DNA of 30,196 bases from a virus (Duplodnaviria > Caudoviricetes), in IMG/VR virus record IMGVR_UViG_3300032312_001296, positions 1 through 30,196 of that record; one strand, given 5' to 3'. Both the position numbers and the translations under genes were made by a program. Positions 1-17,417 of this stretch are shown one piece after another. The notes beneath the pieces were generated by a model that was not told the origin of the DNA, did no database searches, and saw only the letters and a program-made list of their open reading frames with translations. Numbering within the stretch: position 1 is the stretch's first letter; each line of letters starts with the position of its first letter.

Positions 1-123
1 GCCCACTTAATAGCATGAATCATTTTCTTATCTATTATGCAATTTTGGAAAACCATTTTCACCCCTAACAATCATCTGGCAATTTTGAAGCTTTTCATTT
101 GCGTTTTTAGCATCATAAAAAGA
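1..123 (+). repeat. Terminal direct repeat, left copy
   Basis: gcccacttaa...cataaaaaga is identical to 30074-30196; probably assembly overlap. Confidence 0.97.
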
Positions 124-198
124 CGAATCAACACCTTGAATAAATCCCACTCTATAAAAGAATGGGATTGATACTAATAATATAATTTTAAAAAACAT
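28..198 (-). CDS. Small hypothetical membrane/secreted protein
   Basis: ORF 28..222; likely start ATG at 198 (MFFKIILLVSIPFF, hydrophobic N-terminus); overlaps the start of the protease gene across the junction. Confidence 0.55.
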   Translation of the reverse strand: MFFKIILLVSIPFFYRVGFIQGVDSSFYDAKNANEKLQNCQMIVRGENGFPKLHNR

Positions 199-283
199 AC
201 TTAATGTCTTTTTCAGGGTCAAGGTCTATCAAAAGATCAGAATTAAAAGGTCTACACATAGCCTTTCCTGAAGAAGTTTTACC

Positions 284-559
284 TTAATAAGTCCAGTCTG
301 ACCCATCCTCTACCAGTACAAACATAGTCCCAACATGAACATCTGATGACATTAAATCACCTATTGTCTTTGGTTCATTTTCTCGGTGCTTTCCTGCAAA
401 TGTTTCAATAAGTGCCGGAACAATATAAACCGGGACGCTATGAAGCGAGAAAAGAAATTCTCTTATCTCACTCGATGTTGTTCTAAAGCTGGCCAAGAGT
501 TCTTTTACTTGTTTTGGTTTTTCTTGAATTTCTTTGGATAGGTCTCTCAAAGTTCTCAT
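284..559 (-). CDS. Hypothetical protein
   Basis: 91-aa ORF with AAAGGGG SD-like site, in the leftward operon. Confidence 0.75.
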   Translation of the reverse strand: MRTLRDLSKEIQEKPKQVKELLASFRTTSSEIREFLFSLHSVPVYIVPALIETFAGKHRENEPKTIGDLMSSDVHVGTMFVLVEDGSDWTY

Positions 560-580
560 TTATACCCCTTTGGTTTAATA

Positions 581-895
581 TTATGCTGCGTCTTTGTTGC
601 CTAAAAATGAAAACGTAGTAACGATAAATTGGAAACGCTCGATGTTAGAGTCATCTTTATAAGTGTCAATCTGACAATCAAGGTAAACTAACTTACCGTC
701 CTCTAAATATTTATAAAGAATCTCAGCGGCCTGAGCATAGGCGACTATAGGAAGAAAGCAAACTTTATCTTTTCCCTCTTTATGCTCTCTCCAAACACGA
801 AGAACAAACTTTAAAAACGGTTTACCATTCTTAGTCTGTTTCATTTCCATTCCGTAACACGCACCTAGTAAAGTAGCTTTAGACACTGCAATCAT
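581..895 (-). CDS. ssb: Single-stranded DNA-binding protein (OB fold), short form
   Basis: SSB pattern KATLLG..KQTKNGKPFLKFVL..FLPIVAYAQAAEILYKYLEDGKLVYLDCQIDT; lies near ERF. Confidence 0.85.
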   Translation of the reverse strand: MIAVSKATLLGACYGMEMKQTKNGKPFLKFVLRVWREHKEGKDKVCFLPIVAYAQAAEILYKYLEDGKLVYLDCQIDTYKDDSNIERFQFIVTTFSFLGNKDAA

Positions 896-911
896 TTATC
901 TTCCTTTATTA

Positions 912-1043
912 TTAAAAAGACCTAGACTGAAACCTGAACCTAGACCAAGACCCAGACGCAGACCTAGACCAAGACCAAGACCCAGACGCAGACCTAGACC
1001 AAGACTGAAACCAAGACCATTTTTGCTTTTTTCTTCTAATCAC
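912..1043 (-). CDS. 43-aa Ser/Trp/Arg repeat peptide MIRRKKQKWSWFQSWSRSASGSWSWSRSASGSWSRFRFQSRSF (not in ORF track)
   Basis: GTG start overlaps the TGA of the upstream gene (GTGA coupling); ends with TAA TAA TAA in frame. Confidence 0.65.
   Translation of the reverse strand: MIRRKKQKWSWFQSWSRSASGSWSWSRSASGSWSRFRFQSRSF
918..1019. repeat. Degenerate hexamer tandem repeat (AGACCW-like) with a 30-bp higher-order duplication
   Basis: tagaccaagacccagacgcagacctagaccaagaccaagacccagacgcagacctagaccaagac. Confidence 0.9.
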
Positions 1044-1306
1044 TTTAATATACCAAAACTTTCTATGCAGCTTTTCTGGATAAAAAACTCAGGCACATTT
1101 AGGCTTTGTTCGTCTCTGTATTTCTCTTCAGTAAATGCGCCAGTTTCATAAACAATAGCAGGATTACTAATTAACACGCACGTATCACTAATCCCTATTA
1201 ACTCCCCAACATAAATGTAATTTAAACAAAAGAAAGTAACTCTTTTACCCATGAGTTTTAATATGCCTTCATTTTCTATTTCTTGAACTTGTACAAGTTT
1301 TGTCAT
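1040..1306 (-). CDS. Putative Sm/LSm-like fold phage protein
   Basis: LMGKRVTFFCLNYIYVGELIGISDTCVLISNPAIVYETG matches the Sm1-type pattern; C-terminal FFIQKSCIESF resembles Sm2. Confidence 0.6.
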   Translation of the reverse strand: MTKLVQVQEIENEGILKLMGKRVTFFCLNYIYVGELIGISDTCVLISNPAIVYETGAFTEEKYRDEQSLNVPEFFIQKSCIESFGILK

Positions 1307-1309
1307 TTA

Positions 1310-1888
1310 TTAGCCCCTTTTATTAGATTCAGCGATTAAATCACTAGCTTCTTGTTTCGTAATATTGTCCGAGAACTTCACTCCCATCTTCTTAAGAGCA
1401 TTCTTTTGGGCATCAGAAGCAACGCCTAACATAGGTCTTTGCTGACCAATGCCCTCGACTTGGAATGTAGGTTTTATAACCTCTTTTACCGGTGCTTTTA
1501 CTGGTTGAGATTGCGGAATAGAAACTGAGTTTCCATCGTCATCTTCATCCGCAGTTGAAATACCAAGCAATGCCTGGAGTTGGTAACGCTTGTAATATGT
1601 GATAAGAGACCCCATCTTTTGTGGGTCTTGCAAAACAGGCATAACCATTTCAGAAGATAATTCTTCACCAGTTTCGTGAAGTAATTTAGTGACCAATAAG
1701 GTCGAAGCTTCAGATACTCTCATTGTTTGAACAATAGCGAAACCATTAGATGCTAGTGGGCTTCTAACAGCGTCTAGAATTCCTGAAAGGGTTAAATAGT
1801 CCGACTTAAAGAAGGGGTTTTGAGCGTCTTTCTTAATCGGTTTAAATTGTGAATGGAATTTAACGAGTGCTTGACTTAGATTTTTCAT
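1310..1888 (-). CDS. erf: ERF-family single-strand annealing protein
   Basis: KDAQNPFFKSDY, QDPQKMGSLITYYKRYQLQALLGI and DEDDDGN ERF motifs; C-terminal ASDAQKNAL..TKQEASDLI domain. Confidence 0.92.
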   Translation of the reverse strand: MKNLSQALVKFHSQFKPIKKDAQNPFFKSDYLTLSGILDAVRSPLASNGFAIVQTMRVSEASTLLVTKLLHETGEELSSEMVMPVLQDPQKMGSLITYYKRYQLQALLGISTADEDDDGNSVSIPQSQPVKAPVKEVIKPTFQVEGIGQQRPMLGVASDAQKNALKKMGVKFSDNITKQEASDLIAESNKRG

Positions 1889-2075
1889 TCTTTACCTCTT
1901 TTAATTTAATATAAAATTTTCTAACAACCTCTTCGATTGCCTTATCTAGTTTTTCTCTTCTTAACCTTTTATAACAGGAGCATTGGGTTTGACTAACAAT
2001 TTCTTCTTCGTTATAAAATGCTGAAATAAGTTCATACTCTTGACGGCAAACAGGGCAACGTATTATTTCGCTCAT
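1860..2075 (-). CDS. Small Cys-rich (Zn-ribbon-like) protein
   Basis: CPVC...CSC; likely start MSEIIRC at 2075, ATGA-coupled to the upstream gene. Confidence 0.65.
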   Translation of the reverse strand: MSEIIRCPVCRQEYELISAFYNEEEIVSQTQCSCYKRLRREKLDKAIEEVVRKFYIKLKEVKNEKSKSSTR

Positions 2076-2242
2076 AGTGACCTTAAGAACTTTTGAAGAT
2101 ACCAACCCACTGGCCCATGTTCATCAGCTCCAGCGTACCAAATGCCTTCATGGTCTATTCTTATTTCTGTTATTTCAAACATAAAACAAATTTTGTCTTT
2201 CTCAAATATTACTTCCTGACCAATGGCAAAACGTGTTTCCAT
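2072..2242 (-). CDS. Small hypothetical protein (SH3-like beta pattern)
   Basis: Start METRFAIGQEV at 2242 after a GGAGG SD. Confidence 0.7.
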   Translation of the reverse strand: METRFAIGQEVIFEKDKICFMFEITEIRIDHEGIWYAGADEHGPVGWYLQKFLRSL

Positions 2243-2436
2243 TAAATACCTCCCAAAGAATAACAAAAATCTGTTTGGTATTTTGGGGCGCAATAGACAT
2301 TAGCCATATAACTAGACTCACCAGTTTGGGCGATCCTGGTAGCAATGCAATAGTTAAGAGCTTCTTCTCTTGAATAGCATCTTTGAGGTGTGTTCTTGCC
2401 ACATGAAATAAGTAGCAATAAAGCTAGTAACTTCAT
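2242..2436 (-). CDS. Small lipoprotein
   Basis: MKLLALLLLISC lipobox signal; four further Cys. Confidence 0.75.
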   Translation of the reverse strand: MKLLALLLLISCGKNTPQRCYSREEALNYCIATRIAQTGESSYMANVYCAPKYQTDFCYSLGGI

Positions 2437-2437
2437 T

Positions 2438-2623
2438 TTATACTTCTCTTTTTAATTTAGTACTGTAACAATCATGTATAAATTCTATATCCTCTTGATC
2501 GGATTCATCACACCATTCATTTGAGAAAGAACCATCCTCTAAAGCGTAAATGATCTGTTGTGTGGAATAGTTATCTTCTAAGTCTTTAAAATAATCCATT
2601 AAACCTTGAAGTCTAGTGCTCAT
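2438..2623 (-). CDS. Small acidic protein, first gene of the leftward operon
   Basis: 61 aa, Asp/Glu-rich; GAGG SD. Confidence 0.7.
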   Translation of the reverse strand: MSTRLQGLMDYFKDLEDNYSTQQIIYALEDGSFSNEWCDESDQEDIEFIHDCYSTKLKREV

Positions 2624-2652
2624 CTTGTACCTCTTTCGTTTAGTAGGTCTTA

Positions 2653-2679
2653 ATTATAGCACAATTCTGACCATGTAAA
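2653..2679 (-). promoter_or_regulatory. Leftward sigma70-type promoter
   Basis: Extended -10 TGCTATAAT (2661-2653) with TTTACA at 2679-2674; 30 bp upstream of the first leftward gene. Confidence 0.7.
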
Positions 2680-2756
2680 TAAGCTATTGTAATTCATACA
2701 AAGTACCATAAACGTACTGTACTAATATCGTACTAAGTATTATCAATGGGTTACAC

Positions 2757-2785
2757 TTTACAGATCGATTTTGCACTCTTATAAG
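2757..2785 (+). promoter_or_regulatory. Candidate rightward promoter
   Basis: TTTACA-17 bp-TATAAG. Confidence 0.4.
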
Positions 2786-2789
2786 AAAT

Positions 2790-3115
2790 AATGGGAACGT
2801 GAAAAATTGCCCTTAGTGATAAGGTGTCGAGAGAAACAGGCGCATAGAGAAATCTAGCTGTACTTGGTAAACGAGCGAGAAAGAACCAAGCGTGAGGCCC
2901 AAAAAGATTTATAAGATTGTGAGTAGTCTTGTTTAATCCGCTCTTGAAGAGAGAGACATAGTAGCAGGGAAACAACAAATAATCCTGTGAGGTAGGTTTT
3001 AACTTCTCCACTAAGAAAGAGAATAGTGATACCTATGGGCTAAAACGTACTTATCTTCAGTTCACCTCATTAAATGCTGTCGCATTTGGGCCATTGGGTA
3101 AAACCCAACGGCCTA
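2790..3115 (+). ncRNA. Candidate structured non-coding RNA or origin region
   Basis: No convincing ORF; at least seven stems can be drawn by eye (see findings). Confidence 0.35.
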
Positions 3116-3169
3116 TTGCTTAACATTGCATAATTTGACTTAACTAGAATTGATTGTAACTATTTAATC

Positions 3170-4141
3170 ATGACTAAGGTTACGTTTCATGATCTTGTAG
3201 TTCAATTAAAGGAACTTGCTAAAGAGCTTGAACGAACTCCGACTCAGTCAGAATTCATAAATGCAGGTGCTTCTAAAAGACAAATCGCTAAATATAAATA
3301 TTCTAAGATCGTTAATGCTGCAGGTTTAGAACCAAATAGACACGCTCAAACCACCGAACCAATTGAACCAGTAATAAGACCTCCTAGGATTTTATTCTAC
3401 GATATTGAGACTGCCCCTATAACTAGTTACGTTTGGGGACTCTTTGACCAAAACATTGGCCTTAATCAAATAGTCGAAGATTGGTTTATTTTATCCTTTG
3501 CTGCTAAGTATCAAGGTGAGACTGAGTTTCATTACTTTGACCAGCGATCTGAAGCACCCATCCAAGATGACAAAAAACTACTTATAAGCGTTCATAAGCT
3601 ATTATCCGATGCTGACGTACTAGTCGGTCATAATGCTGTTAAATTTGATTTTAGAAAGCTTAATGCTAGGTTCGTCAAACATGGTCTAGCTCCACTAAAC
3701 CACTTCATTCATATCGACACATTAAAGATCGCTAGAAAGCACTTTGCTTTCACTTCTAACAAGCTGAGTTATCTGGCCGAATATCTTAAGTGTGACTCTA
3801 AGAAGTCAGAACATAAAAGGTTTAGCGGTATGGATATGTGGGTGGAGTGTCTTAAAAATAACTTAGAAGCATTTCAGGAAATGGAATCTTATTGCAAGAT
3901 GGACGTTGAAGTTCTTGAGCAGGTATACAATAAGCTTGCACCGTGGGAGCCAACAATAAACTTCCAAGCTTTCTTCCTTGGAACTATCTGTCCATGTAGC
4001 CATACTAAGTTCTACAAGGATGGTTTTAGATATACCCGACAAGGTAAGTTTCAAGTCTTTAGATGTCATAATTGTTCAAAGACCTTTACCGCTAAAGAAA
4101 ACCTTATTGATAAAGACTTAAGAAAGAGCTTTTTTAAGTGA
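3170..4141 (+). CDS. DnaQ/RNase H-fold 3'-5' exonuclease with N-terminal helical repeat and C-terminal Zn ribbon
   Basis: ExoI FYDIET, ExoII VGHNAVKFD, HIDTL, ExoIII YCKMDV; C-terminal CPC...CHNC; N-terminal LAKELERTPTQSEF resembles homing-endonuclease-associated repeats. Confidence 0.85.
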   Translation: MTKVTFHDLVVQLKELAKELERTPTQSEFINAGASKRQIAKYKYSKIVNAAGLEPNRHAQTTEPIEPVIRPPRILFYDIETAPITSYVWGLFDQNIGLNQIVEDWFILSFAAKYQGETEFHYFDQRSEAPIQDDKKLLISVHKLLSDADVLVGHNAVKFDFRKLNARFVKHGLAPLNHFIHIDTLKIARKHFAFTSNKLSYLAEYLKCDSKKSEHKRFSGMDMWVECLKNNLEAFQEMESYCKMDVEVLEQVYNKLAPWEPTINFQAFFLGTICPCSHTKFYKDGFRYTRQGKFQVFRCHNCSKTFTAKENLIDKDLRKSFFK

Positions 4142-14373: not shown

Positions 14374-17115
14374 ATGAAAAAGTTTATAACTCCGACATAT
14401 ACATTTACCCCAGGAGCTTCTGGTGTAGGAACTGTAAACCTTTCAGGCATTACAGGGTTCAATGTTAAAAACCTTGTCTCGATCATTAACCAGACTAGGG
14501 GTGTGGTCATCTACGCTACTGGTTCACAATCTTTAAGATACACTAACGTCGTAGGAACTACGGTCACTCTGTTTTTTAATACTACTGGCATGAGTTCAGG
14601 AGATGTGCTTCAGGTTATCTATGAAGATAATTCTGCCATAACTGTTGAACCTATTTTAATCGATAAAAATGGTAAAGAAGTACCACAGCTTGCGACTTTT
14701 TCTGGCGGTGCGGCGGTTGGTAACTCAACCAATAGGCTAAGTGATAACTTTTCTAGTCCTACTCCAAGCGCATTAGTTTGGGATGAAGTATGGGCAAATA
14801 AAGCCGATTCATTCGTTGAGAAAGGCGGTAACTCTAGCGGTTCGTCTTACTTAAAAATATCTTTATCTCCTTTTGAATTAAATTCTGAATACAGGCTTAT
14901 ATCTAAAGGGACATTTGACATTCCCTCGGCTCTTGGAGTTTCTTACTCTGCTTCTCAAAGATTTTCAGGTCAAGAATTTTCTTTCGGATTCGTCGGTTGT
15001 GATGCCAATGGAAATATTGAATACAATCCACCTAAAGCGGATGTGGCCCTTCCGGCAACTCTGTCAATCACTTCAAACATAGCGACAATTACTTTCGCAG
15101 CACCACATAACTTCGTAGGTAATGATCGTGTTGTTCTTTATGGCAATACGATTTCAGCTTTAAACGTGGGGCCTGTATTTGTTGGAGTAGTTTCTCAATT
15201 TAGCATTAGCGTTGCTATAGCGCTACCAAATGCAACATATAACTGCAACGGTTTTATAAAATTTGTAGACCAGTTAGATGATGCCTCTAACGGTTGTTTC
15301 CTGCACACTGGAGACACCACGAATGCGAGTAATATGACCATAGCTTCTCGTCGAAGTGGTCAAAGCGTAAGATTTGCAAGCATGACTACTGCTTCGTCAA
15401 ATGCATCACCACAAGGTTCATCTAGTTTTACTGACTCTTTCTTGTCTAATAATATAATTGAGCTACAGGCTTCACCTGATGACATTGTTGCTGTCAGTAG
15501 ATCGGCAGACTCAATAGCTTCTCCGCAGACACCTGTTAGATTTACGCAAGGTTATCCAGACGAGTCTAAAAAATATAAAATATTCATTAAAGCCAAAAAC
15601 CACGCAAGACTTCCAAGACCGATCGCTAGAATTGTATCAGCAACTAAAACGGGTTCAACGGTAGCAACCTTCGTAACTGACGTTCCTCACAACCTTGCAG
15701 TTAATGCTAGCCGAATTGTAATAAACGGTATTCGTGACACACTTAATTTTCCTAACGCAACAACGATGAACGTTCAATCGGTTCCAAACGCCACTACTTT
15801 CACAGCTTTCATTGGTACAACCACTACAGGCACTAGCGCCGGAGGCTATGTAGGTTTATGTGATGCTAATGGAATTATACCGGGGGTAAGCTTTCCATCG
15901 GTTCAAAGTATAACTAGAACTAGTAATGCCCTTCAAATTACCCTAGCAAGCAATCCATCAGCACTTACTTCAGGAGAGACAATTCATCTCTATGGTTGTG
16001 ACGCAGGTTCAATGGGTCTATATGATGGTGCGTATAAAGTTGCAAGAATTAACGGTTCAATTGTCGTTGTGGACTCTGTAGGGCCAGACATTGCGCCTAC
16101 AAACTGTGGTGGTGGTATCTTAAAACGAACTGACTTTCGTGTGCATATGGTACGTCTTAATGATTTCTTAAGACATACAATAGAAGTATCTTCAAACGGT
16201 TCTGGTGACTCATCAAAAGGTATTCCAGTGTCCGGTGTGGTTGGCGTGTCAGGGGCTGTTGCAGTAACGGGGACTGTTGGGGTATCAAGTATCTCAGGAG
16301 GTACCGTTTCTGTTTCTTCCGGTTCTGTCACACTCGACGGTGGTTACATAGGGTCTATCGATAGTCCAATTATCATTGGTGGTGGTTTTATTGACAATAT
16401 CAACAATCCAGTAGAGGTAAGTGGAAACGTTGATATTAATTCAAATGCTAATCCTTTAACAATTTTTAAAGATAATCAAAATTATTCTTCGAGTTTTGGT
16501 GGTACATACACTACTTCGAGCTTTGAATACCTTCAAGCATTTGGCGGCGATTGTATAACTGTAAGTGCAAACGTCTCAACCCTCACTGGTTCGGCCTATA
16601 TATATGTTTATGATAGTCCCGATCAGGGAGTTACATATCATTATAAATACACGATCGGGCCCATTGTTCAAGTAGGTGTGTATTCTTCTCCTATCTTGTC
16701 TATCCCTAGCAATTACATACAACTTCATGTTGAACCTGCGGCCGGGTCAAGCATTACCGTCACAACAACTACAGTTTATTCAAACAAAGAACCTACAAGC
16801 ATTATTAAATTTTCCACAAAAAGTTTTAACCCAAACACATTAAACTCGACTACGCCAATTATTGATTGTTCTAGTGTTAAAGATTTTCATATCTCAATAA
16901 GAAATTCTGCTCAGACCTCACCGGCAACAATTACCGTAGAATTTTCACACGACCAAATAAATTGGTGGCCAAGTCCTATCACCATATCAACGATTAATGG
17001 AACTGTTAGAGTGAATAAAGCTAATGAACTATGGTCATACGTTAGGGCGAGAGTTACGTCCGCAGGGTCAGGAATTACAATGCAAGATATTACGATTAAA
17101 GGGATGGCATTATGA
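14374..17115 (+). CDS. Large beta-rich virion fibre/adhesin-like protein
   Basis: 913 aa, S/T/G-rich; repeated (ATITF..PHN..G..V.I.G) barrels; Gly/Val shaft segment. Confidence 0.65.
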   Translation: MKKFITPTYTFTPGASGVGTVNLSGITGFNVKNLVSIINQTRGVVIYATGSQSLRYTNVVGTTVTLFFNTTGMSSGDVLQVIYEDNSAITVEPILIDKNGKEVPQLATFSGGAAVGNSTNRLSDNFSSPTPSALVWDEVWANKADSFVEKGGNSSGSSYLKISLSPFELNSEYRLISKGTFDIPSALGVSYSASQRFSGQEFSFGFVGCDANGNIEYNPPKADVALPATLSITSNIATITFAAPHNFVGNDRVVLYGNTISALNVGPVFVGVVSQFSISVAIALPNATYNCNGFIKFVDQLDDASNGCFLHTGDTTNASNMTIASRRSGQSVRFASMTTASSNASPQGSSSFTDSFLSNNIIELQASPDDIVAVSRSADSIASPQTPVRFTQGYPDESKKYKIFIKAKNHARLPRPIARIVSATKTGSTVATFVTDVPHNLAVNASRIVINGIRDTLNFPNATTMNVQSVPNATTFTAFIGTTTTGTSAGGYVGLCDANGIIPGVSFPSVQSITRTSNALQITLASNPSALTSGETIHLYGCDAGSMGLYDGAYKVARINGSIVVVDSVGPDIAPTNCGGGILKRTDFRVHMVRLNDFLRHTIEVSSNGSGDSSKGIPVSGVVGVSGAVAVTGTVGVSSISGGTVSVSSGSVTLDGGYIGSIDSPIIIGGGFIDNINNPVEVSGNVDINSNANPLTIFKDNQNYSSSFGGTYTTSSFEYLQAFGGDCITVSANVSTLTGSAYIYVYDSPDQGVTYHYKYTIGPIVQVGVYSSPILSIPSNYIQLHVEPAAGSSITVTTTTVYSNKEPTSIIKFSTKSFNPNTLNSTTPIIDCSSVKDFHISIRNSAQTSPATITVEFSHDQINWWPSPITISTINGTVRVNKANELWSYVRARVTSAGSGITMQDITIKGMAL

Positions 17116-17417
17116 TAAGTTTAATTTATTTTGAAGTTATTGATTACAAAATTAAGAACGCATCAGAAATAGGTCAATTCGAAACTATGCAAGAATGCTT
17201 AGATAAGATTGCAGAGGACTCCCCTTCATATCACAGAATCGAAGAATTAATTCCTACTGGAAGAAAGTTAATCTATTCTAGTCCTGTTCCTGAAAAACCT
17301 AAGCCACAGCCAGCTCCACGACCTACAAGACCTGTTCCACAATCACAACCAATATCAGAACCAGAACCAACACCAGAACCGGAACCAGAACCAGTACAAC
17401 CAATAGAAGGTGAATGA
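17112..17417 (+). CDS. Hypothetical protein with Pro/Glu-rich C-terminal tail
   Basis: PEKPKPQPAPRP...EPEPTPEPEPEP, encoded by CCAGAA repeats. Confidence 0.7.
   Translation: MISLIYFEVIDYKIKNASEIGQFETMQECLDKIAEDSPSYHRIEELIPTGRKLIYSSPVPEKPKPQPAPRPTRPVPQSQPISEPEPTPEPEPEPVQPIEGE

Follow-up and report, generated by a model that had tools for sequence, protein, structure and literature searches.

A widespread two-gene phage cassette with a predicted Sm-fold protein and a basic Ser-X repeat peptide

Two small overlapping genes, one for an acidic protein with a predicted Sm fold and one for a basic peptide in which serine alternates mostly with glycine, tryptophan or arginine, constitute a real, widespread and unnamed cassette that is present in many uncultured phages and in some bacteria of the Nitrospina group. 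The Sm-fold family is large, yet none of Pfam, PHROG, NCBIfam and PADLOC has a model for it, and annotation overlooks both genes; in GenBank entry MW202825.1 (L380, 5407-5830), for instance, the Sm-fold gene and the Ser-X peptide are both present and both unannotated. In the open-access literature exclusive of its supplements, where lists of phage structures could mention the family, we found no description of the pair. At most, the cassette may work like an Sm ring with a putative basic tail.

Layout and distribution of the pair

The DNA analysed here (the window) is a whole virus record of 30,196 nt with direct terminal repeats, and matches to terminase, portal, capsid, tail tube and endolysin are present among its open reading frames (ORFs). 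On the minus strand, the Sm-fold gene of an unnamed family (1306-1040; 88 aa, net charge -4, pI 4.7) ends in a TGA that shares its letters with the GTG start of a (Ser-X)n microprotein (minus strand, 1043-912; 43 aa, net charge +10), and this GTGA stop/start overlap (minus strand, 1040..1043) points to translational coupling. The peptide opens with the basic leader MIRRKKQK, after which Ser alternates with Trp, Arg, Gly or Ala; the alternating codons are TGG, AGG, GCG and GGG, with TTT, TTC and CAG at the two ends. The Ser-X repeat is encoded by a hexamer array, mostly N-G-G-T-C-T (minus strand, 917..1019), for which TRF reports a period of 6 with 13.7 copies (938-1019) and a higher-order period of 30 nt (917-1005), and the peptide frame is ended by three tandem TAA (minus strand, 914-906). 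On re-reading the sequence, we recovered the 88-aa ORF, the overlap, the 43-aa peptide and the three stops exactly as the sequence-only reading had described them. A terminator-like hairpin with a T run (minus strand, 919..946) lies inside the 3' end of the peptide gene, in its last codons, just before ssb.

The module is flanked upstream by erf, an ssDNA-annealing gene (minus strand, 1888-1310; Pfam ERF, 7.7e-20), and downstream by ssb (minus strand, 895-581; Pfam SSB, 6.9e-12), both of which lie outside it. An Rfam search of window positions 1-3200 gave no match at E 0.1. Elsewhere, the window holds a second, unrelated hexamer repeat of 6.5 copies (17347-17394) towards the end of ORF 17112-17417, as well as a 323-aa ORF (plus strand, 3170-4141) with an HNH-associated repeat, a stand-alone 3'-5' exonuclease domain and a Cys-rich C-terminal part (phrog_403).

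From 124 loci, drawn from viral contigs, genomes and the window's own record, 95 distinct Sm loci were obtained, the window's included; exact duplicates were removed and near-copies kept, so that the counts below, to which near-identical phages contribute, are not independent. A coupled ORF was defined by at least three Ser-x-Ser and a start falling in the interval -8 to +24 relative to the Sm stop. Translation of the downstream DNA revealed such an ORF in 88 of the 95 loci, in 56 of those 88 at offset -1 as in the window, which bears out the proposal, made from a single locus, of a two-gene module whose coding frame is conserved. Contig ends truncate four of the seven misses (L025, L055, L086, L123); the remaining ones are a short array (L007), a diverged Nitrospinales peptide (L120) and a locus whose Ser-X frames start further down (L118). 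One locus (L028) passes the filter, yet is Ser-rich rather than repetitive. We conclude that the two genes almost certainly form one functional cassette. At L118, six Ser-X frames stand in a row between +189 and about +1250 from the Sm stop, two of them sharing a CYYDQ tail; two or more Ser-X frames occur in 10 of 80 loci, some being overlapping frames of one array.

For the converse test, arrays were collected by DNA pattern alone, yielding 118 distinct ones. This Sm gene lies within 1.2 kb upstream of 62 of them, while 35 have less than 500 nt of upstream DNA and no match, and 21 are without the Sm gene. Among these 21, about eight are pure Trp-Ser runs and apparently unrelated, and about 13 look like orphan Ser-X ORFs, or have a partner beyond the flank. 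At L290, L305, L310, L314 and L330, a Ser-X ORF has a basic or comparable leader, but the 1.2 kb ahead of it contains no detectable Sm-fold gene. A DUF6948-type or A2-type gene was found upstream of none of the 118 Ser-X arrays.

The genes around the pair change from locus to locus. The special tie to erf and ssb that the window had seemed to offer did not hold, erf being a neighbour in 6 and ssb in 8 of the 95 loci; their adjacency is clade-specific, and we rejected them as parts of the module. Within 3 kb, a span cut short at many loci, no conserved third neighbour was found, the largest clusters reaching 8 of 95 loci when antisense repeat frames are set aside.

A chromosomal copy of the Sm gene is present in 10 of 120 Nitrospinota genomes, and in all 10 it is followed at -1 by a non-repetitive peptide of 49-51 aa; the loci with chromosomal pairs from Nitrospinota genomes are L246-L255, L114, L117 and L119-L122. 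Here the hexamer array has decayed and the Ser codons are mixed. Between the four closest copies, pN of the peptide is 0.10-0.14 as against a pS of 0.41-0.64, with a pN of 0.09-0.12 for the Sm genes, so that among these copies the peptide is under purifying selection. Since this selection acts after decay of the array, the peptide itself is what is selected. We rely on the four closest copies because pairs with L246 or L119 (pN 0.39-0.47) were compared gapless, though the alignment shows indels. A divergent XRE-type HTH gene stands ahead of the Nitrospinota pair in 9 of 10 cases. Behind the pair come a convergent gene whose N-terminal domain is butyrobetaine-dioxygenase-like, seen in 8 of 10, and an ApbC/Mrp gene. 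In the two loci viewed in full, one of them on a 3.4-Mb contig, no phage genes were seen within 4 kb. Hfq (PF17209) was not found in any of five Nitrospinota genomes tested, which may be incomplete. Having a fixed length and no repeats, the Nitrospinota copy offers a clonable and alignable version of the peptide for functional tests.

Repeat array and coding frame

The peptides span 19-94 aa with a median of 60 (81 closed ORFs) and carry a basic leader of about nine residues ahead of the Ser-X repeat. Residues enclosed by two serines are Gly (596), Trp (441) and Arg (413), with any other at 31 or fewer. Loci that share identical 75-aa Sm cores encode peptides of 72 and 42, 55 and 27, or 53 and 61 aa, differences to which mis-assembly of repeats could contribute; together with the overall range, they agree with the variable peptide length expected beforehand. 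The observation that serine is always written TCT proved correct for the window (14 of 14 Ser codons) but is local, each of the six Ser codons being dominant somewhere (TCG at 36 loci, TCT 31, TCA 10, AGC 6, TCC 4, AGT 1). Each locus has its dominant Ser codon; these account for 1719 of 1867 Ser codons and leave 148 of 1867 non-dominant in unfiltered counts. The X codons are almost all NGG.

In 75 phage arrays, position 1 of the hexamer is non-modal in 55% of the units, compared to 3-4.5% at positions 2-6, a figure bounded by the unit filter and corresponding to about 8% for Ser codons without it. Variation is thus far higher at a non-synonymous site than at the synonymous ones adjoining it. 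We infer that the array is homogenised while selection acts through position 1 on the mixture of Trp, Gly and Arg. DGR-type adenine-specific mutagenesis was rejected as the source of this variation, since array adenines are fixed while position 1 varies, both at position 6 of TCA arrays (236 of 241) and at position 4 of AGC arrays (161 of 162); no reverse transcriptase was found among the window ORFs scanned. A tree labelled by Ser codon shows 28 label changes with the AGC arrays scattered; as only 7 of 80 inner branches are well supported, this suggests repeated origin without showing it. In one sequencing run, contigs break at the array, where depth is 60 as against 9-10; no indel or joint is listed there, and these data cannot show slippage. 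The search for sequencing runs listed no RNA dataset, and its single match may be the source sample.

The variable base of the hexamer doubles as the +1 frame's wobble base, which raises the question whether the product is instead made from that frame, by read-through of the Sm stop, or whether the array is non-coding altogether. In favour of such a frame, in 37 of 69 arrays it shares the register of the Sm gene and only one stop separates the two, and third-base variation after CG (2/233) is as rare as after TG (8/533). The +1 frame, however, has a start in only 7 of 69 arrays and is out of register or blocked by additional stops in 32 of 69, it runs a median of 9 codons past the array compared to 2 for the Ser-X frame, and from one locus to another its product would change between Gly-Leu (as in the window), Gly-Arg, Gly-His/Gln, Gly-Ala and Gly-Val. 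Moreover, third-base variation is higher after GG (52/674) than after TG, and the +1 frame is broken by 2-5 stops in all 10 Nitrospinota copies. With starts this rare and the frame broken in every Nitrospinota copy, we rejected the +1 frame and stop read-through, and consider a coding frame other than Ser-X, or a non-coding array, extremely improbable. The presence of a Ser-X start and the absence of Ser-X stops and of TGA follow from the construction of the set and were given no weight. The retention of Ser despite six codon types, the scarcity of starts in rival frames and the purifying selection in Nitrospinota together indicate that the peptide product matters.

The Sm-fold partner and the sister Gly-X pairs

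Relatives of the 88-aa protein fall into 1126 clusters at 90% identity (E <= 0.001), and a profile search returned 501 representatives at 50% identity. None of Pfam, PHROG, NCBIfam and PADLOC gave a match for the window protein itself, PDB sequence searches gave nothing below E 0.3, and the LSM/Hfq models PF01423 and PF17209 were not matched. Among 138 homologues, the LSM model is touched by a single one (E 0.025), and the best family match is DUF6897 (E 0.0017, in 12 members). By sequence or motif, the protein is a member neither of Sm/LSm/Hfq nor of DUF6948. Its structure as modelled by AlphaFold2 (pLDDT 91.9) comprises a helix (14-18) and strands at 22-27, 31-39, 43-54, 65-68, 73-77 and 81-85, i.e. 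a helix plus a five-stranded bent antiparallel sheet with a long loop 4, the arrangement of the Sm/LSm/Hfq fold. Among the PDB matches listed by Foldseek, on which the fold assignment rests, the best are Sm/LSm-bearing entries (TM 0.50-0.62, best E 8e-4, one match at E <= 0.001), in line with the Sm-like pattern that had been noticed in the sequence; an Sm fold is thus predicted. The viral matches include DUF6948 proteins, and the nearest named Atlas cluster is LSM at 0.83, which we take as a lead only.

Conserved in the 138 homologues are C27 (86%), Y30, Y32, G34, L36, Y53, E54, T55, G56, F58, Y63, D65, Q67 and E82. Aromatic residues at 30, 32, 53 and 63 are kept in 97-99%, and acidic ones at 54 (90%), 65 (83%) and 82 (97%). 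Sm proteins bind uridine through residues of the Sm1 (Asp..Asn) and Sm2 (Arg-Gly or Tyr-Lys-His) motifs. We take the equivalent sites to be positions 41-43 and 77-79, mapped via secondary structure and motif positions rather than by superposition; no residue there exceeds 41%, and conserved uridine-binding Sm1/Sm2 residues were not found among the 138 homologues. The canonical RNA pocket hence appears to be absent. Positions 53-67 lie at and within the beta3-beta4 insertion of the predicted structure, and the beta3-beta4 loop faces the distal side in Sm rings, as described in sections of PMC3710371. Subunits of Sm rings join through beta4-beta5' pairing. Three of the 150 representatives listed (P0126, P0129, P0164) are natural two-domain single chains, and P0126 is predicted to fold as two Sm-type domains (pTM 0.73), which agrees with packing and shows no interface. 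A complex prediction with four Sm copies and the peptide (score 0.01, mark 0.32) is no evidence either way.

The two partners differ in charge, the Sm core being negative in 71 of 80 Ser-X loci and the peptide positive in all 80; within the family, the two charges are uncorrelated (Spearman 0.09, p 0.45, n=80). A similar layout, in which a small gene is followed by an overlapping dipeptide-repeat ORF, is found in Gly-X pairs, supporting the kinship in layout that had been suggested for repeats of this type. A search with a Gly-Tyr-Gly-Asp pattern gave 121 loci, 66 of them distinct and with an upstream ORF in reach, and 30 of the 46 upstream proteins scanned pass the DUF6948 (PF22253) cut-off; some of the other upstream partners form a group below it. 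The Gly-X peptides are acidic, of the Gly-(Tyr/Asp/Ser) type, a charge built into the search pattern, and their Sm-like partners are only near neutral (average net charge +0.36, n=47). Many Gly-X repeats (L125-L245) stand within longer proteins that have an N-terminal Ala-Cys-x-x-Gly motif or a C-terminal domain. The Ser-X and Gly-X partner types were never seen swapped. The profile match between the Gly-X partners and the Ser-X Sm family is weak (hhalign probability 7% and 9%, over beta1-beta3) and falls under 1% against both Gly-X partner sets when the narrow alignment A1 is used; in the better of the former alignments, E54 is opposite an Arg of the Gly-X partner consensus. Neither the window protein nor any of the 138 homologues reaches the DUF6948 cut-off, and given the missing HMM match and an hhalign probability of 7% we rejected membership of the Sm protein in that family. 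No publication naming DUF6948 was found in an open-access search.

Possible functions and comparison with known systems

Our best reading, to which we assign a probability of roughly 0.35, is that the acidic Sm-fold protein would assemble into a ring that binds the peptide as a putative basic tail for single-stranded nucleic acid. The conserved acidic and aromatic residues around loop 4 would hold the basic (Ser-Trp/Arg/Gly)n peptide, which as a detachable tail might grip single-stranded RNA or DNA during phage infection by means of Trp stacking and Arg, and coupled translation would yield matched amounts of both partners. The peptide would be recognised by composition rather than order, because loci with identical Sm cores carry peptides that differ in order and length. 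The array probably turns over by slippage and homogenisation, with selection probably keeping the mixture of Trp, Gly and Arg via the base that switches the NGG codons. Direct binding between Sm protein and peptide, taken as a part of its own, is reasonably probable. Against the ring-and-tail reading speak the lack of charge co-variation between the partners and the roughly 13 orphan-like ORFs, which may mean that the peptide occurs alone, or that its partner lies beyond the flank. Furthermore, an acidic ring could equally neutralise the peptide as present it, the negative charge of the Gly-X peptides is built into the search and their partners are only near neutral, and the proximity of erf and ssb, which would favour ssDNA, is confined to a clade.

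Neutralisation is the core of an unlikely alternative, in which the Arg/Trp-rich peptide is a poison for nucleic acid, ribosome or membrane of the host and the acidic Sm ring the antidote that sequesters it. Arg/Trp peptides can be toxic, and the antidote-first gene order with overlap, the opposite charges and the divergent XRE-type gene at the Nitrospinota loci would suit such a pair. The gene layout also fits type II toxin-antitoxin systems; neither part, however, has a family match in PADLOC or NCBIfam, up to six peptide ORFs stand behind one Sm gene, and apparent orphan peptides exist. We are similarly doubtful about a counter-defence decoy, i.e. a ring that displays a low-complexity peptide imitating single-stranded nucleic acid, with one dipeptide per base and Trp as the base, or seeding aggregates, and thereby soaks up a host sensor or nuclease. 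In keeping with this idea, order and length are hypervariable in phages and the length is fixed at 49-51 aa once the cassette is chromosomal, the sister Gly-(Tyr/Asp/Ser) cassette follows the same logic of small, aromatic and charged residues, and the neighbours change between loci. Yet a basic peptide would be a poor mimic of nucleic acid unless its serines were phosphorylated, and no kinase is linked to the pair; nor is a counter-defence gene readily reconciled with persistence in Nitrospinota chromosomes.

The repeat might also act in cis, its translation or an RNA hairpin regulating downstream genes in the manner of an attenuator while the Sm ring binds the repeat RNA. TCT-type arrays do fold strongly (mean z -5.2, n=28), the window's array less so (z -2.2), the window has its terminator-like hairpin at 946-919, and NGG makes up nearly all X codons. 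Arrays of the AGC type (n=6) and those from Nitrospinota (n=3), in contrast, fold no better than shuffles (z 0.4 and 0.1), and a terminator-type T run is present in only 4 of 73 loci, so that the T run of the window hairpin is not conserved. The downstream genes vary, being convergent in Nitrospinota, and the peptide remains selected after the array has decayed. Cis control is accordingly quite improbable, and an attenuator leader peptide was rejected for want of a conserved terminator and of a conserved downstream gene; hairpin folding is possibly an engine of array expansion rather than a requirement. We see only a slim chance for a RiPP-like system, in which a basic leader with a variable Ser-rich core is modified by a host enzyme or by the Sm-fold protein through its conserved Cys27, Tyr, Asp65, Gln67 and Glu82. 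The leader-core anatomy, the several precursor-like copies at some loci (overlapping frames in part) and the conservation of C27 would agree with it, but no conserved modifying enzyme, protease or exporter lies within 3 kb at the 95 loci, many of which are short, and we know of no catalytic 88-aa Sm domain.

More generally, but only tentatively, the pairs could represent an undescribed class of phage cassettes in which Sm rings lacking the pocket read encoded dipeptide polymers, basic Ser-X and acidic Gly-X ones with matched rings, diversified at one base per hexamer, and which would serve as decoy or poison in phage-host conflict and later have been domesticated by Nitrospina-group bacteria. 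In the DUF6948 pairs, the likeness lies in the layout of a small protein and an overlapping dipeptide-repeat ORF, as seen here and not as part of the Pfam definition; they differ in that their acidic Gly-X peptide is often inside a longer protein, whereas here the Ser-X peptide is basic and a separate ORF. Other phage-encoded Sm-type folds likewise lack an assigned function; passages on them mention no repeat-peptide partner, and the Ser-X Sm protein differs by having no PDB sequence match. An Hfq-like phage gene is treated in PMC11373665, and folds, faces and oligomers of Sm proteins in PMC3710371 and bioRxiv 10.1101/140376. Compared to Sm/LSm/Hfq proteins in general, the phage protein is acidic, and by sequence it matches neither the LSM/Hfq models nor any solved structure. 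Borg Sm ribonucleoproteins, according to passages of PMC9879509, are likewise encoded by a mobile element and join an Sm domain to tandem repeats that evolve fast, stay in frame and yield disordered sequence; there, however, repeats of 4-17-aa units are fused N-terminally and the Sm1/Sm2 motifs are kept, whereas the phage module has 2-aa units in a separate downstream gene. Closest in logic are eukaryotic SmD1, SmD3, SmB and LSm4, in which the Sm domain is likewise accompanied by a basic dipeptide repeat, their Arg-Gly tail (RG tails of Sm proteins are described in parts of PMC3710371), the phage repeat differing as a separate, Ser-based and Trp-rich gene product. The Ser-X peptide would then be a counterpart of that tail supplied in trans, and if the ring does bind it, the Sm fold would act as the reader of a trans-supplied dipeptide polymer with built-in diversification.
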